Source: a virus
Lineage: Duplodnaviria; Caudoviricetes
Strand: one strand, 5' to 3'
Length of the DNA stretch: 24,077 nucleotides
IMG/VR virus record: IMGVR_UViG_3300042371_000197
Coordinates: 1 to 24,077 of that record
Part shown: one piece after another, positions 1-23,804 of the stretch
Numbering within the stretch: position 1 is the first letter of the stretch
Layout: every line of letters starts with the position of its first letter
Notes under the pieces: generated by a model
What the model was told of the DNA's origin: nothing
What the model saw: only the letters and a program-made list of their open reading frames with translations
Database searches by the model: none
Translations under genes and position numbers: made by a program

Positions 1-207
1 GGCTCCGGCGACGGCAACGGCTCCGGCGACGGCGACGGCTCCGGCTCCGGCGACGGCAACGGCTCCGGCGACGGCGACGGCTCCGGCGACGGCGACGGCA
101 ACGGCTCCGGCTACGGCTACGGCTCCGGCGACGGCGACGGCTACGGCGACGGCGACGGCTACGGCGACGGCGACGGCTACGGCAACGGCTCCGGCTACGG
201 CGACGGC
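1..207 (+). repeat. Tandem hexamer repeat GGC-(TCC/GAC/AAC/TAC), 34 units plus a final GGC, encoding G-[SDNY]
   Basis: Directly visible. It has a partial higher-order 18-nt period (e.g. ggctac ggcgac ggcgac) and runs off the left edge of the window. Confidence 0.97.
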
Positions 208-7143: not shown

Positions 7144-7168
7144 GATTTTTCTTTTTTTTTTTAGGGTG

Positions 7169-7210: not shown

Positions 7211-7533
7211 ATGTTACAGAGTTACAGAGTTGTTACAGAGTTTTTTAAAACTCTGTAACGCTGTAAAACATTAAAAAACAGGCGATTAACAAAAGCGTTA
7301 CAGAGTTACAGAATAAAATCAAACTTTTAGATATTTATTTAAAAAAACACCTCTTTTTTAAAATACTCGTTTTTTTTATATTATAGGCTTTGTAATTGCG
7401 TATTTTTCAAAAACTCTGTAACGCTTGACGTTTCCCTTTAATAACAAGGGTTAGAAATGTAACAGATAGTTTTTAAACTCTGTAACACTATCAATAAAAA
7501 CAAATATAACACTAGGCGTTAAAGCGTTACAGT
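7211..7533. repeat. Cluster of direct and inverted GTTACAGAG repeats; putative replication origin (iterons)
   Basis: GTTACAG on + at 7213, 7221, 7232, 7297, 7305 and 7526; CTCTGTAAC at 7251, 7414 and 7478; AT-rich core at about 7315-7385; non-coding gap right after the primase gene. Confidence 0.75.
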
Positions 7534-8145: not shown

Positions 8146-8334
8146 ATGCCTATTTACGATTATTTTTGCAGTTGCGGAGAGTCTAAGCTCGACGAAATAG
8201 TTAAGGACTTTAAAGAGGTTGTAACTTGCGACTCTTGCGGTAAAAAAATGGAGAGAGCTATATCGGCCCCAAAGTTGGGAGGCTTTGATAAAAGCGGGAG
8301 AAGTAGAAGTAAAAACGAAAAACAAAAAGGTTAA
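8146..8334 (+). CDS. FmdB-family zinc-ribbon protein
   Basis: MPIYDYFCSCG...VTCDSCGKKMERAISAP matches the MPxYxYxC...CxxCG...RxxS signature. Confidence 0.82.
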   Translation: MPIYDYFCSCGESKLDEIVKDFKEVVTCDSCGKKMERAISAPKLGGFDKSGRSRSKNEKQKG

Positions 8335-10300: not shown

Positions 10301-10717
10301 ATGGCCTTTATAGTTAAAAGCGACTTAGTAAGATACATCGACGAGACTACTATCGACCAACTTACGGACGACGACGATACTCTCGTTACGGAGGCAATTA
10401 AGGACGCGGAGGGAATTAGCGAGAGAATAGGCCAAAGAGTTAACACGGCGACCGAGTTCGCTAAGAGTGGAGCCAATAGACAAAGATCTTTATTAAAACA
10501 TTGCATATCATTAGCGATTTATTACTTATTCGAGCGCCTTTATACGGACGTTTTACCGGAGGGAAGGATCCAAGCGATGCAGTACGCGGAGGCTTGGCTC
10601 GAGGACGTGAGTAAGGGTAAAATAGTTGTAAACCTTACTAAGGTTGACGAGGCAAACCAAAGCGGTTGGCCTATACGTTGGGGCTCGCAGCCGAAAAAAG
10701 ACTCACAAAACTACTAA
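10301..10717 (+). CDS. Head-tail adaptor, Mu gp36/DUF1320-like
   Basis: 138-aa helical protein with LLKHCISLAIYYLFER and YAEAWLEDVSKG, located between TerL and the portal. Confidence 0.78.
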   Translation: MAFIVKSDLVRYIDETTIDQLTDDDDTLVTEAIKDAEGISERIGQRVNTATEFAKSGANRQRSLLKHCISLAIYYLFERLYTDVLPEGRIQAMQYAEAWLEDVSKGKIVVNLTKVDEANQSGWPIRWGSQPKKDSQNY

Positions 10718-10720
10718 GAA

Positions 10721-13696
10721 ATGGGACTACTAGATAAATTATTTAACGCTATTAAGCCGGCAGTTAACGAGCCTACAAAGCAAGCGGAGAGAATAGAGAA
10801 AAAGACTATCCGCCAACAAATGTACCGCTTTAACCAAGAGTTAAAGAGTTGGAAAAGTGGCGTAAGCAATTTTGAGGACCCTTATAACCCTATTTGCGTG
10901 GACCTTATCCGCGTTTATAACGACGTAATTATCGACGCTCACCTTAGCGCCTCTATTGACTCAAGGATTATAAGAACAACGTCGAAAGACTTTAAAGTCG
11001 TGGACGATAAAAACGAGGAGCTTAACGAGGAGACGGAAATTTTTACCTCTCCTTGGTTTAGAGATTTTTTAAGGTTGGCCCTAGAGTCTAAATTTTTCGG
11101 TTATTCGCTTATACAGTTTGGCGACCTAAAAGGAAAGCGATTTAAGAGCGTGGAGCTTATCCCTCGCGAGTATGTTTACGCGCAAAAAAACGCGGTTAGG
11201 AAGTCGCCGTATGACTCAAACGATTTAATATACTTCGACGACGCTCCTTACGACGCTTGGCTTATGGGGGTTGGGAAACCGTCCGACTTAGGGCTTTTAA
11301 TGAAAGCGGCGCCTCTTGTTATTTATAAAAAGACGGCTATCGGATCTTGGACCGAGTTCGCGGAGCTTTTCGGGGCTCCTTTCAGACTAGGAAAAACGAA
11401 TATAAGAGACAAAGAGCTTAGAGATAATATGTTCGATATGTTGGAAAATATGGGGCGTAACGCTTTCGGAGTTTTCGACGAGTCGGATAGCTTGGAGTTT
11501 ATTAGAGACGGGAAAACCGACTCACATAACGTATATAACCAACTAATCGAGAGAGTTAACTCGGAGGTTAGTAAGTTGATACTTGGGTCCACTATGACAA
11601 TGGACGCCGGGAGCAGTCGCTCACAAAGCGAGGTGCATGAGAGAACAAGCGCCGCGATAAATAAAGAGGACGCTTTTTTCATTACCTCATTGGTTAACGA
11701 CGAGCTTATCCCTTTCCTTAATAAGTACCACGGTTTCAATATTACCGGTCGCTTTATGTTTGACGACACGGAAAACACGACCAAGGCGGAGCAGTTTAAA
11801 ATTGACTCGGAGCTTATCAAGCTCGGTTTTAACGTTCCCAAGGCTTACCTTACAGATACTTACGGGACACCTATCGACGAAAAGGAGGAAAACGACGACG
11901 AAACCGACGGGCCAAAAGGACCAAAAAAAGAAAGCGCAGAGGGCGACGAGTTGGACAACTCAATTAAAAAAAAAACGACTTTAGCGAGTATTTACGAAGC
12001 TTTTACCTCGGAGAGTAGCTTACACGTATGCAATACTTTAGACTACGAGGAGACACCTCTCCCGGAGTGGTCCGACGAGTACGTCGAGGAGGTTATCGCG
12101 GGAGTTTATTCCGGGCTTTACACTATCGACAACCTCCCGGCAAACCTTTACAACGAAATAGGGGCTCGACTTATGCAAGGCCTTTATGACGGTTTAGCGA
12201 CCGGCGAAGCTCTTAGCACTATTAAGGACCCGGAATATATTAAGACTTTGCAAAAAAACATCTTTACTTTCTCCGGCGCTAAGACTTGGCACGAGGTTAA
12301 GCTTATGAGCGATTACTTAATCGACGAGAACGGAAACCCTCGCAGCTTTAAGGAATATAAAGACTACGCTAAAAAGGTTTTTGGTGAGTTTAACGTCAAT
12401 TATTTAAAGACTGAAATAAACCACGCTAAGGGGTCCGCTCAAATGGCCGACAAGTGGAAGCAATTTGGTGAGGAGGCGGAGCTTTTCCCTTATTTGCGCT
12501 ATGTAACAGCGGGAGACGACAGAGTCCGCCCCGCTCACAAAGCTTTGAACGGTATCGTTAAGAGATACGACTCTCCTTTTTGGAAGGAAAACGCGCCGCT
12601 TAACGGTTGGAATTGTCGTTGCGACTTAAAGCAAGTTGAGGAGGCTATCGAGACGCCGGACGACGTTATCGAAGAGAGAATAAATAAAGAGACGGACGGG
12701 AAAGGACTACAAACTCCCGACTATATGAAAAACAATCCGGGGGTTGAGGTTTTCGGAAAAGAACACCCTTATTTTAAAATCCCTCGAGCTTTTAAGAAGG
12801 ACCAAGCCAATAATTTTGGCCTCCCGGAGCCGCCGAAACTAAGCAGCGAGAAGATAGTTAAAGAGATTAAGAAGGCTCAAGAGGCTTACACTCCTCCTCT
12901 TGTATCGTTGGACCCAACTCTTATAAAGTCGACGATTAAGGACTTAGATAGGGCACAACTTGAGGACCTTATCAATAACCAAGACGGGGCCGCTAAGGTT
13001 TTAAACGACTTTAGGACGGATTTAGGGATAAGAACGTCGTCGGAGCGTACCGGAGCCGGAGCTCTCAAGTGGGCAAAAGAAACCGGAGCTAATAACGCTC
13101 AAAGCATATCTAGCGACTCGCTAGGACATTGCGCAACATCAAATAAATTTATAAACATCGTTAAGAAAAAAGACGAGAATATTAATTTTGAGGTCGTTAA
13201 TATGGTGCATAAGGCCGAGGACTTAGTTAAAGAGTTCCCGGAAACCTATTATATAAACACGAGAAACCACCTTTGCAAAAAGACGGGGATAAGTAGAAAA
13301 ACCGGGCTACCAACTGCGGAGGTTGTGGGTAAAGTAAAAGATGACGGTTTCGTTTTATTTCACGGGATAACGGAGGCGAGCGGAATAAATAGCAAATCAA
13401 TCGCTCCGTTAATAACTCACGAAGTTAACCACGCGATCCACAACTCTATTGATAAAATGATTAACGAAAACCGTTTTAAAACTTCGGCGGCCGCTACAAA
13501 GTACGGGGTTAAATTATCCGACTCGGTTACGACTTACGGCTCGAGTAATTGGTCCGAGTTTTACGCCGAAAATATGGCCGTTTACGTTCACGCGCACGAC
13601 TATTTAAAGAAGGAACACGGAAAAGTTTACGACTTTTTAGTCAACTTACATAACGAGTTAGGCGTAGATATTAAAACCTTTAAAATTGCTAAATAA
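10721..13696 (+). CDS. Fusion of portal (DUF935/Mu gp29-like), MuF minor head domain and C-terminal HExxH zincin metallopeptidase
   Basis: Portal motifs DAHLSASIDSR, LGLLMKAAP, WTEFAELFGAPFRLGK and SKLILGSTMTMDAGSSRSQSEVH (to about 11880); acidic linker; MuF motifs YLKTEINHA, LRYVTAGDDRVRPAH and PLNGWNCRC (about 12620); HEVNH at 13418-13432 and EFYAE at 13556-13570. Confidence 0.88.
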   Translation: MGLLDKLFNAIKPAVNEPTKQAERIEKKTIRQQMYRFNQELKSWKSGVSNFEDPYNPICVDLIRVYNDVIIDAHLSASIDSRIIRTTSKDFKVVDDKNEELNEETEIFTSPWFRDFLRLALESKFFGYSLIQFGDLKGKRFKSVELIPREYVYAQKNAVRKSPYDSNDLIYFDDAPYDAWLMGVGKPSDLGLLMKAAPLVIYKKTAIGSWTEFAELFGAPFRLGKTNIRDKELRDNMFDMLENMGRNAFGVFDESDSLEFIRDGKTDSHNVYNQLIERVNSEVSKLILGSTMTMDAGSSRSQSEVHERTSAAINKEDAFFITSLVNDELIPFLNKYHGFNITGRFMFDDTENTTKAEQFKIDSELIKLGFNVPKAYLTDTYGTPIDEKEENDDETDGPKGPKKESAEGDELDNSIKKKTTLASIYEAFTSESSLHVCNTLDYEETPLPEWSDEYVEEVIAGVYSGLYTIDNLPANLYNEIGARLMQGLYDGLATGEALSTIKDPEYIKTLQKNIFTFSGAKTWHEVKLMSDYLIDENGNPRSFKEYKDYAKKVFGEFNVNYLKTEINHAKGSAQMADKWKQFGEEAELFPYLRYVTAGDDRVRPAHKALNGIVKRYDSPFWKENAPLNGWNCRCDLKQVEEAIETPDDVIEERINKETDGKGLQTPDYMKNNPGVEVFGKEHPYFKIPRAFKKDQANNFGLPEPPKLSSEKIVKEIKKAQEAYTPPLVSLDPTLIKSTIKDLDRAQLEDLINNQDGAAKVLNDFRTDLGIRTSSERTGAGALKWAKETGANNAQSISSDSLGHCATSNKFINIVKKKDENINFEVVNMVHKAEDLVKEFPETYYINTRNHLCKKTGISRKTGLPTAEVVGKVKDDGFVLFHGITEASGINSKSIAPLITHEVNHAIHNSIDKMINENRFKTSAAATKYGVKLSDSVTTYGSSNWSEFYAENMAVYVHAHDYLKKEHGKVYDFLVNLHNELGVDIKTFKIAK

Positions 13697-13881
13697 TGGA
13701 ATGGGAAGAAATTAAAAGCTTAATTAATACGGCTATTGAGTCGGACGACCCTAAGCAAGTACGCGAAATAATTGATAAAATAGCGGCCCAAGACGAGCAA
13801 ACTCCGGGAGCTATTGAGGCTATTTATTCCGGTATAAGCGATAAAATGCACGAACTTTTGCAAAATGGCCAAGCGGAATAA
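13696..13881 (+). CDS. Small acidic helical protein, candidate immunity protein for the MuF metallopeptidase
   Basis: 61 aa, TAATG-coupled to the fusion gene and placed between MuF and the virion morphogenesis gene. Function is inferred from position. Confidence 0.55.
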   Translation: MEWEEIKSLINTAIESDDPKQVREIIDKIAAQDEQTPGAIEAIYSGISDKMHELLQNGQAE

Positions 13882-14314
13882 ACTAGGCCCCCAACTAAGG
13901 GAGGACCAAAAGCTCGCTAAAAACGAGGTTAAAAAAATTCTTGTCCTAGCGGCGGAGGAGGCCGTCCAATTTTTCCAAGATAATATAACCGGTCGCCAAG
14001 GTTTCTTAGATAGGTCCACGGAAAAATGGAAACCAAGAAAGGGCAACCTCGACCCGGGGCGTAACTTATTGGTCGGAAAGGGTGGAGGCGCCAAGCTTTA
14101 TAAAAGTATCGCGCGGACGAGCTTATCGGCGTCGAGGGTTGTTATTGGTATAAAAGGGCCGGCCAACGTTTATGCCTCTGTACATAATTTTGGACTTAGA
14201 GCGGGACGGGGTCGAGGTTTTATAATGCCTAAGCGTAAATTTATGGGCGAAAGCGTTGTTTTAAACCGCAAAATAGTTAGACTAATAGAAAGAAGGATTA
14301 AGAAAATACTTTAA
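13865..14314 (+). CDS. Phage virion morphogenesis (neck/tail completion) protein, Mu gpG-like
   Basis: KWKPRK and YASVHNFG...MPKRKFMGES signature in a basic 149-aa protein. Confidence 0.85.
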   Translation: MAKRNKLGPQLREDQKLAKNEVKKILVLAAEEAVQFFQDNITGRQGFLDRSTEKWKPRKGNLDPGRNLLVGKGGGAKLYKSIARTSLSASRVVIGIKGPANVYASVHNFGLRAGRGRGFIMPKRKFMGESVVLNRKIVRLIERRIKKIL

Positions 14315-14888: not shown

Positions 14889-15758
14889 ATGGCGAGAACG
14901 GTAGACGAAATCCAAGACGAAATAATCGCAGCGGTACAAGCGGACGCAACTCTTGCGGGCTTAACCTCGTCGAGCGCGGTCGCTTTTTGGCGACTTGTTA
15001 CTCGAGTGGTGGCGGCGGCTTTGGAAACAGAGGAGCAAATTAACGATATTTTTAGGGCGGAGCTTGAGCAAATCGCACGCGAAGCCGTTCCGGGAACCGC
15101 TCAATGGTTGCAGCGTAGAGTTTTGGAGTTTCAATACGACGCTTTGAGCCCTCAAGTGGTGCAAGTGGTGGACGGACGAGTTACTTATCCGGTAGTAGAT
15201 CCGGCGCTTAGAATAGTAACAGCGGCGGCGGTAAAGGAGCAAGCTAACGGTCGAGCTTTAGTAAAAGCAGCTAAGACAAGCGGCGGGGGAGTTTTGGAGC
15301 CTTTGACGGGGCCGCAATTAACAGCTTTAAGCGGTTACTTGTCTCGTATTGGCTTTGTAGGTATTCCGATCGACGTTATTAGCCAACAGCCGGACCGCGT
15401 TCGTATGGTGGGGCTTAGTATTTACTATTATAGACAATATGATTTAGTCGCAATTAAGGCCGCGGTTAACTTGGCGGGTGCAAACTATTTAAAAGAAATA
15501 TCGACGACTAACTTTAACGGGGTTGTCGTAAGATCAACGTTAATAGATCGCTTGCAAGCTATCGAGGGAGTCGCTTTAGTTGGCGACTTTGGCGGCGGTC
15601 CTTTTTTACGTAACTTTTCAACACCGACCCCGGGAGGCGTGTTGATTAATACCCAAGTCGAAACGGCGGCGGGCTACGCTATTTTAGAAGATACGGCCGG
15701 CTATACTTGGGACGACGAAATCGACTATTTTACGGACGACTTAATACCAAACTCTTAG
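14889..15758 (+). CDS. Putative baseplate wedge (J-like) protein
   Basis: MARTVDEIQDEII, LTSSSAVAFWRL, PGTAQW...FQY and NFNG...LIDRLQAIEGV, as in baseplate proteins of Bacteroidota myophages. Confidence 0.68.
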   Translation: MARTVDEIQDEIIAAVQADATLAGLTSSSAVAFWRLVTRVVAAALETEEQINDIFRAELEQIAREAVPGTAQWLQRRVLEFQYDALSPQVVQVVDGRVTYPVVDPALRIVTAAAVKEQANGRALVKAAKTSGGGVLEPLTGPQLTALSGYLSRIGFVGIPIDVISQQPDRVRMVGLSIYYYRQYDLVAIKAAVNLAGANYLKEISTTNFNGVVVRSTLIDRLQAIEGVALVGDFGGGPFLRNFSTPTPGGVLINTQVETAAGYAILEDTAGYTWDDEIDYFTDDLIPNS

Positions 15759-15761
15759 GAT

Positions 15762-16262
15762 ATGAGTATTTACGTAGTTAATTGGGACGACTTTGTTACG
15801 GACTACCTTCCGCCGGATAAGCGGGAGCCGGTTAATAAGGCTTTTTTAGGCGCTAATTTAGAGCCTTTAAACACTTTGCACGTCGATACTTTCGACGTAT
15901 TTAAACCGGATATTACCGACCGCGCAAAGCACAACGGGCAACGTATTTTAATGGAGTCGGTACTTAACGCGGCTTTTTCGGTTGTTTCGGCTCCTTTTAT
16001 TTATATAGATAACAGCGGGGACAACGTTACGCCGGACATCTTTTTTAATGAGTCCGAGGGGTTGCCTCCTTACATATTTTTTAATGAGTCGGAGGGGGAA
16101 ACTCCGGCCTATTTTAATAACCAAGCCGAGGTAACAAACAACCGTAATTTTGTGGTTTACGTTCCGGCGGCGGTTTATGCAGCAGTAGGCGAGGCAGCTA
16201 TTAAGCAGCAAGTCGACCGACTTAGACCTTATTCAACTTTTTACACAATCGTACAATATTAA
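15762..16262 (+). CDS. Putative baseplate protein (partner of the J-like protein)
   Basis: LPPDKR, HNGQRILMESVLN and FVVYVP motifs, an internal 12-aa repeat and position between the J-like and fibre genes. Confidence 0.6.
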   Translation: MSIYVVNWDDFVTDYLPPDKREPVNKAFLGANLEPLNTLHVDTFDVFKPDITDRAKHNGQRILMESVLNAAFSVVSAPFIYIDNSGDNVTPDIFFNESEGLPPYIFFNESEGETPAYFNNQAEVTNNRNFVVYVPAAVYAAVGEAAIKQQVDRLRPYSTFYTIVQY

Positions 16263-16266
16263 TATT

Positions 16267-17307
16267 ATGGCACTAAAAACAAAAAAACCAAGGTTCAAAG
16301 TAATAGGTAGCGGCGAAATGAATACCGGAGGAGCTCCGATATTGGCCGACGATATTATTACTTTGCAAGAAAACGCGAGAGCTGACTTACTAAACGAGCT
16401 CGAATATTATAGGAGTAAGCTCCCGGCGTTAATGTATTACCAAGGCGTAGGAAATCCAAACGCGGCGGAATTTAAAAACGGGTTAATCTTGAGCGGTTGC
16501 GAGTACAACAACACGGACCCACAAAACCCGGTAATAAGCGAGGGCTTCATTTACTCGGGCGGCGAAATTTGCTACTTTCCCGGAGGTACTTACAACACCG
16601 GACCAACGAACGCGGGATTGATTTACTTATTTAAAGGCGCAGAAACTACGGTTTTACGCGTTTTTAACGACGGAGGCAACAAACAGATTTTTACCTCTTT
16701 CGCGTGCACAGTAGAGACGGCGAGCGTAGGAGCTCAAGGACCACAAATGCCCGCGGGAACTGCAATAGTGCCGACGTCGGAGGTTGTGGTTATTTGTTGC
16801 GGGGTTAATACTCAAACGATCGCGGAGAGCTATTTTACTAAGGAGGCGGCTCTCGGTATTATAACAATGGGGGCGCAATTATTTAAACCGGCTTGGGTTT
16901 CTCATAGTAGTTTAAATACTTTCGTCTCTTTTGACGCTACTACTATGCCTTATTTATTTTCACGAATTCTGAAAGGGAATTTTACAGAAATAAGAGGAGG
17001 GTTAAAAATAAACTCGGCGACTATTGGAGGAGGCTCAAACGTAATGTTGGCGACTTTAAGCTCGCACGCTGTTAATACGGGGGTGAGTGTCGGTATTTAC
17101 GCGGCTTATAGCGATCAGTCTCTCGAAGCTCCTAAGGTAAGTATTAACATAAACGGACAAATAAGGCTACAAGAACCGACCGGAGGTTGGGCAGCTTTAA
17201 CGGGTAATCCGATTTTAATTATTAACGCTATTGTTTACGGACGAAATGACGCCCCGGCCGGAGACGTTTATACTTTCGACTCAAGTTTCTTAAATGTTAC
17301 ACCTTAG
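16267..17307 (+). CDS. Putative tail fibre/receptor-binding protein
   Basis: N-terminal GGAP...LQ and ILSGCE...ISEGFIYSGGEICYFPGG baseplate-attachment-like pattern, a beta-rich C-terminus and position after the baseplate genes. Confidence 0.55.
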   Translation: MALKTKKPRFKVIGSGEMNTGGAPILADDIITLQENARADLLNELEYYRSKLPALMYYQGVGNPNAAEFKNGLILSGCEYNNTDPQNPVISEGFIYSGGEICYFPGGTYNTGPTNAGLIYLFKGAETTVLRVFNDGGNKQIFTSFACTVETASVGAQGPQMPAGTAIVPTSEVVVICCGVNTQTIAESYFTKEAALGIITMGAQLFKPAWVSHSSLNTFVSFDATTMPYLFSRILKGNFTEIRGGLKINSATIGGGSNVMLATLSSHAVNTGVSVGIYAAYSDQSLEAPKVSININGQIRLQEPTGGWAALTGNPILIINAIVYGRNDAPAGDVYTFDSSFLNVTP

Positions 17308-17456
17308 GGTTTAACGTCGGGGTGATTGTCGAAATAATAGTCTATAATTTCACGCAAAAGGGCGGCCGTATTGGCCTCCTTTTTGTTTTTTAGCCTCTCG
17401 AATAGCATACGGCGGCGGCCGTGGATCCAAGCTTTTACCTCTATTTTTATTGACAT
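17304..17456 (-). CDS. Unannotated 50-aa ribbon-helix-helix-like DNA-binding protein
   Basis: Hand translation: MSIKIEVKAWIHGRRRMLFERLKNKKEANTAALLREIIDYYFDNHPDVKP*. Start context is attaaaagtATG, the stop overlaps the fibre gene's stop, and the ORF fills an otherwise empty gap. Confidence 0.7.
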   Translation of the reverse strand: MSIKIEVKAWIHGRRRMLFERLKNKKEANTAALLREIIDYYFDNHPDVKP

Positions 17457-17542: not shown

Positions 17543-18673
17543 ATGGAAAAATTCCGCTATATAAATAACTACATCGTCGGTAAAAAAACCGCGAAAATGA
17601 GTTTAAACCGTCCTATTGGCGGCGATAACGGCCCGAGTATTAACGGGGCGGACTTCGCTCGCGAAATGGATTATTTAGCAGAGGCGGGAGTCGAGGAGGT
17701 TGTTATCGAGATCAATAGCCCGGGCGGAAACATTAAAGAGGGCTTTAGTATCTTTGCAGCTATTAAAGACGCTCCTTTTAGAACGGTAACCAAAGTTATT
17801 GGTATCGCGGCGAGTATGGCCGGGATTATATCGCAAGCGGGAGACTATCGTATTATAAAAGACTACGGACTTTTCCACGCTCACGGGCCGCAAGTTCCGA
17901 AAGGTAAAGAGGTTGAGGCCGACCTTTTAAATAAAATGCTTGAGAGCCTTAAAACAATGATAAGATCTAAAACAAGTTTGAGCGACGAACAAGTTAACGC
18001 TTTACTTGGTAAGGAAACCGTTTTGACAGCTCAAGAGGCTTTTAATATGGGACTTTTTGACGAAATAGAAGAAACTAAAGGAGTGAAACCGGAGTTGCTA
18101 GTTAGCAACAACGTGGAGGCCCTTTATGAAATGGCAAATAATTTTATAACTAAAAACGACGAAATGAAAAATTTAAACGATTTTTTACAGTTAGAGAACG
18201 CAACCGAGGAGCAAATTATTGCTAAGGTTACGGAGATTAAAGCAGAGGCGGCGAAAGTCGAGGAGCTTAACAACGAGCTTACGGCTAAAACTACCGAAAT
18301 CGAAAGCTTAACCAATGAGTTAAACACGGTGAAAGAGGCTAACAAGGCGCTTAAATTGCAAGCAGCTACGGACGTAGTGGAAAACGCAATTAAAGCGGGC
18401 AAAATTAAAGAGGACTCTCGCGAGTCTTGGATTAACCAAGCGGTTAACGACTTGGACGTTACGCGTTCTTTATTGTTGAGCTTTGCCGGAGAGACTAAAG
18501 CGGTAAGAATTAACAACGCTTTGAAAGTAGAAAGCCAAAGAGAAGATAAAGAAAGCCGCAAAGATTGGGACTTTCAAAAATGGGGGCAAGAAGATCCAAA
18601 AGGATTGGAGCAATTAAAAGCAGACGCTCCGGAGGAGTTCGAGGCTTTACTTAATGCCTATATCGCAGAGTAA
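17543..18673 (+). CDS. ClpP-type (S14) prohead protease with C-terminal coiled-coil scaffold domain
   Basis: IEINSPGG, GIAASMAG (Ser), FHAHGP (His) and LTAQEAFNMGLFDEI, followed by a heptad-rich C-terminal half; directly upstream of the capsid gene. Confidence 0.9.
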   Translation: MEKFRYINNYIVGKKTAKMSLNRPIGGDNGPSINGADFAREMDYLAEAGVEEVVIEINSPGGNIKEGFSIFAAIKDAPFRTVTKVIGIAASMAGIISQAGDYRIIKDYGLFHAHGPQVPKGKEVEADLLNKMLESLKTMIRSKTSLSDEQVNALLGKETVLTAQEAFNMGLFDEIEETKGVKPELLVSNNVEALYEMANNFITKNDEMKNLNDFLQLENATEEQIIAKVTEIKAEAAKVEELNNELTAKTTEIESLTNELNTVKEANKALKLQAATDVVENAIKAGKIKEDSRESWINQAVNDLDVTRSLLLSFAGETKAVRINNALKVESQREDKESRKDWDFQKWGQEDPKGLEQLKADAPEEFEALLNAYIAE

Positions 18674-21430: not shown

Positions 21431-21466
21431 AAAAACCTCCGGACTAAAAACCCGGAGGTTTTTTTT
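21431..21466 (+). terminator. Rho-independent terminator (possibly bidirectional)
   Basis: AAAAACCTCCGG-actaaaaac-CCGGAGGTTTTTTTT. Confidence 0.85.
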
Positions 21467-21497: not shown

Positions 21498-21806
21498 ATG
21501 GCAGAAATCACAGAAAAAGAAATCGAAAGCTTAAAAGCCAAGCACGGCGAATTGTTTAAGCTAACAATCCCGTTAAAAGACGACGAGGTCGTTTTAATCC
21601 TTAAAAAGTTGGACCGCGTAACCTATTCGGCCGGATCTAAGTTATTGGAAAAGGACGAACTACTCGCGGCGGAAATGTTTTTAAGGTCGTTAACGGTTGC
21701 GGGCCCGGTTGAGGACGTTATCAAAGACTTTGAAGCGTTAAGAATTGCGGCGAGCTTGCTCGGTACTGTAATAGGGACGCGCTCGGGAAACGTAGCGAAG
21801 TTGTAA
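21498..21806 (+). CDS. Tail assembly chaperone (lambda gpG analogue)
   Basis: 102 aa between the tube and tape measure genes, with EIESLKAKHGELF and a slippery heptamer near its 3' end. Confidence 0.85.
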   Translation: MAEITEKEIESLKAKHGELFKLTIPLKDDEVVLILKKLDRVTYSAGSKLLEKDELLAAEMFLRSLTVAGPVEDVIKDFEALRIAASLLGTVIGTRSGNVAKL

Positions 21807-22054
21807 AAATTTTAGAGTCGATAGACTTATCACTCGCTTACTCTTTTGGAGTATTTAGGCAAATAAATTTTTACGACGCAAGGATAAAAGAGATTAACGT
21901 CGACGCCGACGAGGGTTTACAATGGGACTCACTTATCCGTTATCACTTTAAAATAGATCCGGAGCCTTTGAGCGACGACGCTTATTTTAAGTTAGTGGCG
22001 GGCCTCGAGTGGGTTATCAGACAAGAAAACGAGCGGCACAAAAACAAGGACTAA
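21785..22054 (+). CDS. -1 frameshift extension of the tail assembly chaperone (gpGT analogue)
   Basis: G GGA AAC at 21785-21791. The -1 frame is open to TAA 22052-22054: RSEVVKILESIDLSLAYSFGVFRQINFYDARIKEINVDADEGLQWDSLIRYHFKIDPEPLSDDAYFKLVAGLEWVIRQENERHKNKD, and it has no ATG of its own. Confidence 0.85.
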   Translation, partial: GKRSEVVKILESIDLSLAYSFGVFRQINFYDARIKEINVDADEGLQWDSLIRYHFKIDPEPLSDDAYFKLVAGLEWVIRQENERHKNKD

Positions 22055-22079
22055 AAAGGGGAGGTAACTCCCTTTTTTT
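22053..22079 (+). terminator. Rho-independent terminator
   Basis: AAAAAGGGGAG-gtaa-CTCCCTTTTTTT starting at the stop codon of the frameshift extension. Confidence 0.75.
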
Positions 22080-22115
22080 GCTATTTTTACACAACGACCA
22101 CCAATATAAAAGATA

Positions 22116-23804
22116 ATGGCAGAAAGTACGACCTACGTAATAGAGTTAAACGACAAGTTAAGCCCCGGATTAAAAAAAGCAGCGGCCGCCGCTATGGGGC
22201 TCGATAATGCTATGAGCGGAATAGGTAAGAAGGGAAAGCAAGGGGCGGACATGGCCGGAGGCGGGTTAAACTCATTAATTACTAAGGTGGGGCTTGCGGC
22301 TTTAGCTTATAAAGCTTTAAACGCGGCGATAGGTTTCGCGTCGGAGTCGGTAAAGACGGCCCGAGAGTTTGAGAGTTTAAAAAATGCGATAACTTTCGCG
22401 TCGGGATCGGCGGAGGAGGGCGCTAAAAATATGGACTTTATCCGAGAGCGGTCGAAATTACTAGGGACAGATTTAAGAGTGTCGGCGGAGGGTTTTAAAA
22501 CCTTGTCGGGAGCAATGATAGGGACCAAGCTCGAAGGACAAGCAACTCGCGATATTTTCGACGGGATCCAGGTAGCGAGCTCGGTAATGGGATTAAGTGC
22601 GGAGGACTCTAAAGGCGCTATGTTGGCCCTTGGGCAAATAATGGGTAAAGGTAAAGTACAAGCGGAGGAGTTACGCGGGCAAATTGGCGAGCGTATTCCG
22701 GGAGCTTTCAATATTGCGGCCCGTGCAATGGGTATGACTACGCAACAGCTCGACAAAGCTTTAGAAAAGGGCGAGGTAATGGCCGAGGACTTTCTCCCTA
22801 AATTCTCGAATGAATTAAAAAAGACTTTTGGCGGCGGATTAGAGACGGCGGTTAATAGCTCACAAGCTAACTTCAACCGCTTTAACAACATGATGACAGA
22901 CTTAAAGGTTACTTTAGGTAACTCATTGATGCCTATAATTAATAGGGTTATGACGGGGCTACAAAACGCCTTTAACTTTCTGAAAACAAACTACGGAGTT
23001 ATAATGCAAGCCTTACAGCCTTTAATCACTCACTTTAGAGAAATTGGCGCCTTGGTAGAGTCTTTTTTTAACAGATTAACGGGAGGCGCTACGGTGGCGG
23101 AGTCCTTACAAAGCGCGTTTGCGGGATTACAGGAAGTTATGAAATTTATGACGCCAATATGGGAAAAAATTCGCGATATTCTCGGGACTGTTTTCGACGC
23201 TATAATTAAAATAAAAGTAGCTTTTGACGGATTTCTCGAGCGTTTTCCTATTATAGGTAAAACTTTTAGAGGGCTTATATACTTGATTCGTGAGGGGTTT
23301 CTTATAATAATGGACTCGGCTAAGAATATACTCGGCGGAGTAGGGGATTTGTTGGCGGGTATCTTTAGCGGAGACGTCGATCAGATTAAAAAGGGTCTTT
23401 CCGGACTTTCGGACGCTTTCGCACCTATCGAAGGGGGTAAGCGTATGGCCTCGGCTTTTGCGGAGGGTTTCAATATGGAAATGATAAAGGAGCCGCTTAA
23501 ACTAAAGACGGACACCGGAGAAAAAAAACACGCAAACTTTAACGACGTTTTAAAGTCTCAATCTTTAGTAAAGGCGACCGGAGCGGGAGCAGCCGGAGCG
23601 GGGGCGGGTGGAAAGCAGTCGAGTACAAGCGTCGACGGCGTAAAATCGGGACGTCCGACGAGTATTAATATAAGTATCGGTAAGCTTATCGAGACTTTTA
23701 ATGTAACAGCTACCAACCTCGACGACATTAATAACAGAGCAAAGGACTTGGTCGCTCAAGCTCTTTTAAGTGCAGTGAATAACGTTAATAACATTGCTCA
23801 ATAA
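22116..23804 (+). CDS. Tape measure protein
   Basis: Tape-measure N-terminal motif ALGQIMGKGKVQAEELRGQIGERIPGAF, Ala/Gly-rich helical sequence, position after the chaperone. Confidence 0.92.
   Translation: MAESTTYVIELNDKLSPGLKKAAAAAMGLDNAMSGIGKKGKQGADMAGGGLNSLITKVGLAALAYKALNAAIGFASESVKTAREFESLKNAITFASGSAEEGAKNMDFIRERSKLLGTDLRVSAEGFKTLSGAMIGTKLEGQATRDIFDGIQVASSVMGLSAEDSKGAMLALGQIMGKGKVQAEELRGQIGERIPGAFNIAARAMGMTTQQLDKALEKGEVMAEDFLPKFSNELKKTFGGGLETAVNSSQANFNRFNNMMTDLKVTLGNSLMPIINRVMTGLQNAFNFLKTNYGVIMQALQPLITHFREIGALVESFFNRLTGGATVAESLQSAFAGLQEVMKFMTPIWEKIRDILGTVFDAIIKIKVAFDGFLERFPIIGKTFRGLIYLIREGFLIIMDSAKNILGGVGDLLAGIFSGDVDQIKKGLSGLSDAFAPIEGGKRMASAFAEGFNMEMIKEPLKLKTDTGEKKHANFNDVLKSQSLVKATGAGAAGAGAGGKQSSTSVDGVKSGRPTSINISIGKLIETFNVTATNLDDINNRAKDLVAQALLSAVNNVNNIAQ

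Follow-up and report, generated by a model that had tools for sequence, protein, structure and literature searches.

A portal–MuF fusion with an exchangeable predicted zincin tip and a probable slippage site at its joint in a Mu-like phage

We analysed a stretch of 24,077 nucleotides from a tailed phage (Duplodnaviria; Caudoviricetes; IMG/VR record IMGVR_UViG_3300042371_000197, positions 1 to 24,077), which is called the window below. The analysis centres on an open reading frame (ORF) of 991 amino acids (aa), in which a portal protein, a MuF module and a C-terminal extension (the tip) form a single chain, and on the small ORF that follows it. The tip is a predicted zinc protease and is exchanged among related phages, and the joint between portal and MuF carries a run of ten adenines, at which slippage would yield a plain portal in addition to the fusion. 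Taken together, we lean slightly towards a reading in which both products are made and the fusion takes its cargo to the next host.

The fusion gene and the adenine run at its joint

The features of the locus are as follows.

10721..13696, + strand: portal–MuF–zincin fusion ORF, 991 aa (Pfam and PHROG matches; in frame in relatives; spanned by independent contigs)
10910..11866, + strand: Mu-type (DUF935) portal domain, residues 64-382 (PF06074, E 4e-74; PHROG 113 portal, E 1e-55)
11867..11965, + strand: acidic, Pro/Gly-rich variable linker, residues 383-415 (from the sequence; length and letters differ among relatives)
11966..11975, + strand: A10 run (AAA AAA AAA A, KKK 416-418), likely programmed slippage site; A9-10 conserved
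11982..11984, + strand: TAG in the +1 frame, 2 codons past the run; a portal of 420 aa would result if one A were lost
12016..12018, + strand: TAG in the -1 frame, 14 codons past the run; a portal of 432 aa would result from a gained A or from a ribosomal slip to -1
12056..12835, + strand: MuF (SPP1 gp7-like) module, residues ~446-705 (PF04233, PHROG 220)
12836..13696, + strand: exchangeable C-terminal tip, residues 706-991, with a predicted zincin domain at 734-991
13696..13881, + strand: 61-aa acidic ORF, predicted cognate inhibitor (immunity protein); its start overlaps the fusion stop (TAATG)

The initial annotation had read the long ORF as a portal, an acidic linker, a MuF domain and an extension with an HExxH motif, followed by an acidic 61-aa ORF with a TAATG overlap (13696-13881). 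Pfam matches, residue positions and independent contigs confirmed this reading. The portal and MuF domains passed the Pfam cut-offs, and the match of the tip to the ATLF family lay under its cut-off. The Pfam core of MuF (PF04233, Phage_Mu_F) covers residues 547-636 (12359-12628, E 7e-15) and the module matches PHROG 220 'minor head protein and DNA pilot' (E 1e-30). It sits in the portal/terminase module, with terminase, gp36 and portal adjacent. Relatives are fused in frame in 11/11 loci of the first set that reach MuF (L006 ends before it), and contigs from runs X4 (11831-13029) and X6 (11801-12296), which belong to two other studies, span the joint without a gap; thus, the fusion does not stem from misassembly. 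We also rejected a separate start of MuF past the joint; the first in-frame ATG there is at residue 485, inside MuF. Just past the run (~12010-12035, residues 430-440) most fused proteins keep a His/Cys motif (HxC, CxxC or CC), which could form a metal site with the conserved His and CxC of MuF.

For comparison we used a clade of 30 loci with at least 54% portal identity, 27 of which are complete; the three cut by contig ends were excluded from the tip table. Before counting, ten repeat loci (L003, L012, L024, L033-L039) and six loci without MuF match (L006, L029, L041, L048, L055, L075) were removed. Portal and MuF are fused in 23 clade loci, drawn from many assemblies, and split in seven.

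The A10 run, which was not part of the initial annotation, is the only A run of at least nine bases in the window and sits precisely at the boundary between the acidic linker and the MuF-associated sequence. A run of A9-10 is present at the joint in 30/30 clade loci (21 distinct junctions), and only 12 other A runs of at least nine were counted in 218,583 bp. The run is kept in all codon phases, and AAA accounts for only 68% of the portal Lys codons. Both other frames close soon after it: a +1-frame stop follows within 5 codons in 22/23 fused loci (background 0.35) and a -1-frame stop within about 14 codons in 23/23 (background 0.76). At the level of lineages (11, grouped by eye) this corresponds to rough P values of 2e-4 (+1) and 0.05 (-1). 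At the run, the portal frame also contains an A_AAA_AAA heptamer of the X_XXY_YYZ form. At the protein level, KKK was found in 75 of 119 fused linkers compared with 7 of 498 control windows, and FF in 7 more linkers. In many fused proteins that lack KKK this position is occupied by G-K (linkers P0046-P0081), perhaps a shadow of a G_GGA_AAx slippery heptamer.

Split relatives carry MuF in the -1 frame, and six of the seven are one A away from fused sisters: L045, L047 and L053 are A10 and fused, L046, L049-52 and L054 are A9 and split. Altogether, A10 is found in 21/23 fused and A9 in 6/7 split loci. The +1-frame end of fused L045 is the natural portal end of split L046. Since split loci lie one A from fused sisters, with matching portal ends, the fused/split polarity has changed at least twice on the portal tree. 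In split phages the MuF frame is often open from the run onwards, without a start codon.

Beyond the clade we inspected 34 distant loci, near-duplicates included. A slippery heptamer was present in 25/25 loci with MuF in the -1 frame, in 2/2 fused loci and in 1/7 with MuF in other frames. These heptamers are mostly T_TTT_TTC with a hairpin, and most such relatives have 3' structure; fused L017 belongs to this T_TTT_TTC-hairpin group. The cultured phages Peternella_1, fF4, TCUEAP3 and p00 have a slippery site at the portal end and MuF in the -1 frame, on which the record annotation is silent. In these four phages (L015, L016, L018 and L019; sites at L015:3033-3042 and L019:2999-3007) several annotated MuF starts look too late.

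A close parallel is dnaX of Thermus thermophilus: it has a 9-base run, both other frames contain stops, and about 50% of the product is short owing to slippage (PMC5009743; papers cited here by PMC number were covered in part, and what is said of them refers to the covered text). A9 and A11 cassettes gave 40% and 63% shifting (PMC3711429), and ribosome sliding on iterated AAA has been described (PMC4363877). Like tau/gamma of Thermus, our locus has one long ORF with a 9-10 base A/T run at a domain boundary (PMC5009743, PMC3711429), near stops in both frames, short and long subunits of one oligomer, and both polarities within the gene family. The criteria used for dnaX-type sites, a conserved A/T run of at least nine in a coding region and near stops in both frames, are seen here. 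The two systems differ in the gene concerned and in that the long product here carries an effector; in our case we infer slippage from the sequence. We consider it likely that the A10 run is a working slip site. Polymerase slippage is slightly favoured over a -1 ribosomal slip because the run is fixed at 9-10, indifferent to codon phase and without a hairpin; a ribosomal slip is still considered because of the T_TTT_TTC-hairpin relatives, including fused L017.

The predicted zincin tip and the small protein behind it

The tip carries the motif HEVNH at residues 900-904 (H900, E901, H904; 13418-13432), followed by YGSS at 939 (Y939) and EFYAE at 946 (E946). A profile of five close tips recovered 39 representatives among 1.84 billion proteins; HExxH is present in 33 of them and the remaining 6 are short fragments. 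Across the 34 rows of an alignment, Y939, E946 and E950 do not vary, and conservation of H900, E901 and H904 is at least 90%. Judging from the PPEP alignment and its residue numbering, E946 would be the third ligand.

The AlphaFold2 model of the tip (pLDDT 94.9, pTM 0.91) was compared with known structures. A wide structural search placed the catalytic domain of anthrax lethal factor (LF; 1yqy) first (Z 11.5, rmsd 3.5, 163 aligned, 16% identity) and PPEP-2 (6fpc) second (Z 10.7, rmsd 3.3, 150 aligned), and the sub-threshold Foldseek matches (best E 1.9e-3) name the same families. A sequence search of solved structures returned PPEP-1 only (E 0.27-0.46). An ESM Atlas feature search gave ATLF/M90-like clusters (0.92-0.94, fewer than 170 shared features), which we treat as a lead only. 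Taken together, the tip is predicted to be a zincin of the LF/PPEP type. The LF/PPEP resemblance proposed in the initial annotation thus gained support, with predicted fold and motif in agreement, and a zincin-like fold is predicted where its absence would have spoken against the proposal. With the LF catalytic domain and PPEP-1..3 (ATLF-type) the modelled tip shares the fold (Z 11.5, 10.7) and the HExxH...Y...E layout (alignment E 0.27). It differs by an identity of only 10-17%, by the lack of the other LF domains and by a beta-rich insert of 65 residues (about 110-147 in the model); its occurrence in a phage suggests that the target is bacterial.

The same tip family also occurs on MuF1 and MuF2 proteins of unrelated phages, and the tip is therefore a mobile domain. 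One unrelated phage (L078:620-4587) has a different portal and a free MuF2 with the same zincin family and a coupled 73-aa ORF.

Within the clade, a constant N-terminus carries four zincin tip types, an ADP-ribosyltransferase (ART) or no tip. The window and L001 have the zincin tip, and their sister on the portal tree, L002, an ART tip (PF03496, E 7e-20); the near-identical portals of L007, L009, L026 and L008 carry other zincin tips or none. Among the 27 complete loci, 12 have a tip and a small ORF, one (L007) a tip alone and 14 neither. A small ORF thus follows 12/13 tips and 0/14 tipless genes (Fisher p 7e-7, with related rows taken as independent), and tipless relatives have the gpG-like gene directly after MuF. 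The initial annotation had suggested checking whether homologues exchange tip and downstream ORF together and whether the C-terminal domain is invariant; here, both elements vary together, and the domain is variable.

The broad tip alignment contained no stretch conserved enough for a locus scan. A DNA pattern of the family motif retrieved 32 other viral loci, and a coupled small ORF was present in 32/32 (26 distinct). It measures 61-73 aa, overlaps the stop by 1 or 4 bases and is net acidic in 31. Zincin tip and partner form a family pair that occurs across unrelated phages and for which no Pfam model passes.

The 61-aa protein of the window contains 14 D/E and 5 K/R. When it was co-folded with the tip and zinc, the score was 0.92 and the best of three controls scored 0.00; at least 76% of contacts were shared between runs and the partner pLDDT was at least 85. 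The mark used is reached by 116/157 solved complexes and 2/215 mismatched pairs, counts that are rough for self-made alignments. In the predicted complex, partner residues 33-49 pack against strand 801-807, H904, Y939 and E946, i.e. over the active site. This co-folding, which the initial annotation had recommended, supports the 61-aa protein as a candidate inhibitor of the zincin tip. None of the findings that the initial annotation had named as refuting its proposal turned up. Overall, tip and small ORF probably constitute an effector–inhibitor pair. Matches of the 61-aa ORF to HU-HIG/DNA-binding families (Pfam, PHROG; E 0.01-0.08) were discarded because of their weakness and inconsistency. 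A 36-base piece of the ORF (13704-13739) matches contigs of other sequence in three runs (5 mismatches, loose ends), probably by chance or through unrelated sequence.

Proposed function and alternative explanations

Portal rings are dodecamers. We suggest that slippage at the A10 run would give two products from one gene, a portal-only protein and the full fusion, and that both would co-assemble, only some ring subunits carrying the MuF-protease cargo into the head. Such a mixed ring would provide few MuF copies, a result that SPP1 reaches by non-covalent binding of gp7 to the portal; there, the portal directs a small number of gp7 copies into the procapsid (PMC6316719). In the producing cell the protease would be held inactive by the small protein, whose ORF is coupled to the fusion stop. 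Once severed from the portal, the cargo would be ejected, unaccompanied by the inhibitor, into the next Bacteroidota host and would cleave a bacterial protein there. Release from the portal and ejection, which we take over from the MuF toxin model, are the weakest steps, and action in the newly infected cell appears only marginally probable. The tethering of the protease to the portal vertex, put forward in the initial annotation, holds in that portal, MuF and tip form one covalent chain. It probably does not apply to every subunit, since the conserved slippery run likely gives a portal-only protein.

In its most far-reaching form the model is possible but doubtful. The A run would act as a payload dial that sets how many of the twelve portal subunits carry the MuF-toxin, and a one-base change would flip the system between fusion by default and fusion by slip. 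Zincin and inhibitor would be new families, the cargo would be cut, injected and destroy a host defence protein, and a T_TTT_TTC-plus-hairpin version would exist across Mu-like Bacteroidota phages including cultured gut and marine ones.

Several observations weigh against the delivery of a slippage-dosed cargo by the portal. L040 lacks a near +1 stop. No conserved hairpin was found past the run in the clade (z -1.2 to +2.7; window z 0.18), although a programmed -1 ribosomal site would have a stimulatory structure 5-8 nt downstream. The linkers of 37/119 fused proteins lack both KKK and FF, so that some fusions may work without a slip. The tip alone matches ATLF (PF07737) with E 5.5e-5 and 23.4 bits, which does not reach the gathering cut-off of 27.4; from its sequence it may work like this family, but we do not file it there. 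Foldseek against the PDB gave no match at E ≤0.001 (best 1.9e-3, TM 0.4-0.55). The co-fold alignment assumed homology of the 61-aa ORF to the partner family of other tips, and its relation to the family behind the 32 other tips is weak (hhalign E 0.013, probability 3%); the ORF is the best non-member match to the partner-family profile among 5,786 ORFs, but with E 0.86. Related loci are not independent, so the p values given above overstate the significance. In L007 no small ORF accompanies the zincin tip, and the ART tip of L002 and the zincin tip of L014 are followed by the same Cys-rich type of small ORF, which indicates that small ORFs are not always tip-specific. Finally, a chain tethered to the portal is not ejectable unless cut, and no cut site was identified. 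The Cys-rich ORFs themselves (L002:4008-4208, L014:4622-4822) may encode a general partner rather than a cognate inhibitor.

One alternative keeps the pair and the slip site but has the effector act in the producer or after lysis, the DNA always being injected without it. Its role could be to exclude superinfection, to harm neighbours or, as proposed for Bxa, to serve host fitness. The tip is covalently tied to the portal, and it is established that the portal stays in the virion. The MuF-ART Bxa of Bacteroides has been described as a fitness factor that a prophage encodes and that is secreted, in a paper that calls the biological role of MuF toxins unknown (PMC11699363). However, a portal–MuF fusion points to capsid loading (PMC6316719), and an inhibitor coupled to the effector should keep it off in the producer. 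A benefit to the lysogen is weakened by the lack of any integrase or transposase match among the ORFs scanned, 19 of relative G001 and 24 of the window. We consider this explanation unlikely.

Quite unlikely, in our view, is that the A run serves DNA-level phase variation by slipped-strand events or is inert, with only the fusion made and all 12 subunits loaded. It would fit sister genomes that are one A apart (L046 vs L047), the slipping of poly-A runs in replication (PMC3711429) and the single-gene portal–MuF fusions of Microbacterium phages, for which the covered text of PMC7302621 describes no slip. However, run length is stable within lineages, as the A10 and A9 counts above indicate, and the letters upstream of the run differ between A9 and A10 sisters. 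Within-population variation of run length was looked at in four low-depth contig sets only, which list no indel at the run. In addition, an often start-less MuF that opens at the run needs slippage at the level of expression in split phages, and an inert run would not remain all-AAA (chance 0.32 per lineage).

We regard as improbable a role of the zincin in self-processing or maturation, in which the protease would release MuF from the portal and the small protein would determine when it cuts. Zincin domains of phage polyvalent proteins have been proposed to be autoproteolytic (PMC5512222), and the L007 tip without a small ORF would agree with such a role. Against it, 14/27 complete clade members are tipless and one has an ART instead, the same tip family is found on free-standing MuF proteins of unrelated phages, and a separate Clp-type head protease is encoded at 17543-18673. 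A homopolymer sequencing or assembly error joining two separate genes, suggested by the location of the joint within a 10-base homopolymer, is largely refuted and has practically no chance in view of the 23 fused loci from many assemblies, the gap-free contigs of two independent studies and the late first ATG at residue 485.

The proposed slippage and loading have to be seen against known MuF systems. Among 191 MuF polymorphic toxins 20% are metallopeptidases, and a small ORF follows in 89.4% (PMC5576092; Jamet et al., 2017). Like these toxins, which have a MuF1 domain beside the portal, a variable C-terminal domain and a small downstream ORF (PMC5576092), our locus appears, from sequence and models, to combine MuF in the portal module, an enzyme-type and variable tip and a co-travelling small ORF. 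It differs in that MuF is in frame with the portal, with a slippery run at the joint, and in that the known family is tied to temperate phages (PMC5576092), whereas no integrase was found here among the ORFs scanned. Bxa and Apk2 of Bacteroides and Streptococcus prophages likewise represent a Bacteroidota head module with MuF and swappable enzyme tips (PMC11699363). There, an adjacent small inhibitor blocks the toxin by binding, which is predicted here. Their tips are a tested ADP-ribosyltransferase, alarmone synthetase or deaminase (PMC11699363), and here we have a predicted zincin on a portal fusion. Microbacterium phages carry single-ORF portal–MuF fusions (EA3/EA5/EA8/EB) and MuF-VIP2 fusions (EH/EJ; PMC7302621); unlike here, the covered text describes no chain that combines portal, MuF and toxin and no slip site at the joint. 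PBECR domains are fused to MuF and portal (PMC5512222, PMC3482391).

The toxin–immunity arrangement is thus already known as a kind (PMC5576092, PMC11699363); new are the paired families of zincin and predicted inhibitor and the probable slip site, together with the flips in its polarity. We found no paper on portal/MuF slippage or a portal frameshift, and none relevant on tested MuF metallopeptidases, in a search of main texts, with most subscription papers and supplements, which may bear on novelty, outside its scope. 'Frameshift' and 'bacteroid' do not occur in the main text of PMC5576092, nor 'frameshift' in the covered part of PMC8776804, nor 'portal' in the first 300,000 characters of PMC5009743 or in the covered part of PMC3711429. 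PMC10299305 was rejected as a precedent for a portal slip, its covered text concerning a hydrolase gene. If the proposed slippage is true, it would be a recoding event in a portal gene, of which we found none in print within this scope. It would address how MuF toxins enter virions and what they do: the portal itself would carry cargo and the recoding site would set the dose, so loading could be tested by proteomics of relatives in culture. It would also mean that many of the MuF starts annotated in Bacteroidota phages are probably wrong.

Genomic context and further observations

According to Pfam and PHROG, the window contains the head and tail module of a Mu-like phage with a contractile tail: small and large terminase, gp36 adaptor, portal, gpG neck gene, Clp-type head protease (a separate gene at 17543-18673, Pfam), major capsid protein, sheath and tape measure. 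The direct neighbours of the fusion and the small ORF are the following.

10301..10717, + strand: Mu gp36-like head-tail adaptor, just upstream of the fusion (PF07030, E 3e-11)
13865..14314, + strand: Mu gpG-like neck/tail completion gene (PF05069, E 7e-6)

The best matching cultured phages are Winoviridae of Flavobacteriia and Bacteroides phages (29-37% identity), and we infer a Bacteroidota host from these sequence matches. Winoviridae (Peternella_1, lotta8-1, FPSV-S27, fF4) and Bacteroides phage p00 share the gene order terminase, gp36, DUF935 portal, MuF and gpG as well as Clp protease and sheath; unlike the window, they have portal and MuF annotated as two genes. A scan of genome contigs returned only 4 distant loci and did not identify the host. 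Lake and freshwater runs contain contigs near-identical to the window. The relative G001 is complete (33,605 bases) and 91-93% identical across most matched blocks; small, unmatched ORFs remain in the sets scanned for integrase and transposase.

Further observations concern other parts of the window. The edge-open first ORF (1-220) starts with a long Gly-Asp/Gly-Tyr-Gly-Ser repeat followed by a globular part. A 62-aa zinc-ribbon ORF (8146-8334; PF09723, E 3.5e-7) lies ahead of the small terminase. Three genes without Pfam match (14889-17307; 289, 166 and 346 aa) are located between the neck genes and the head protease and may encode baseplate or fibre proteins, which would be an unusual position for tail parts. 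Upstream of the Clp protease, a 50-aa ORF on the minus strand (17304-17456) resembles a ribbon-helix-helix protein. Intergenic T runs of 8-11 at 7152-7162, 7370-7377 and 21459-21466 are probably terminators, and a tail assembly chaperone region (21498-22116) precedes the tape measure gene.

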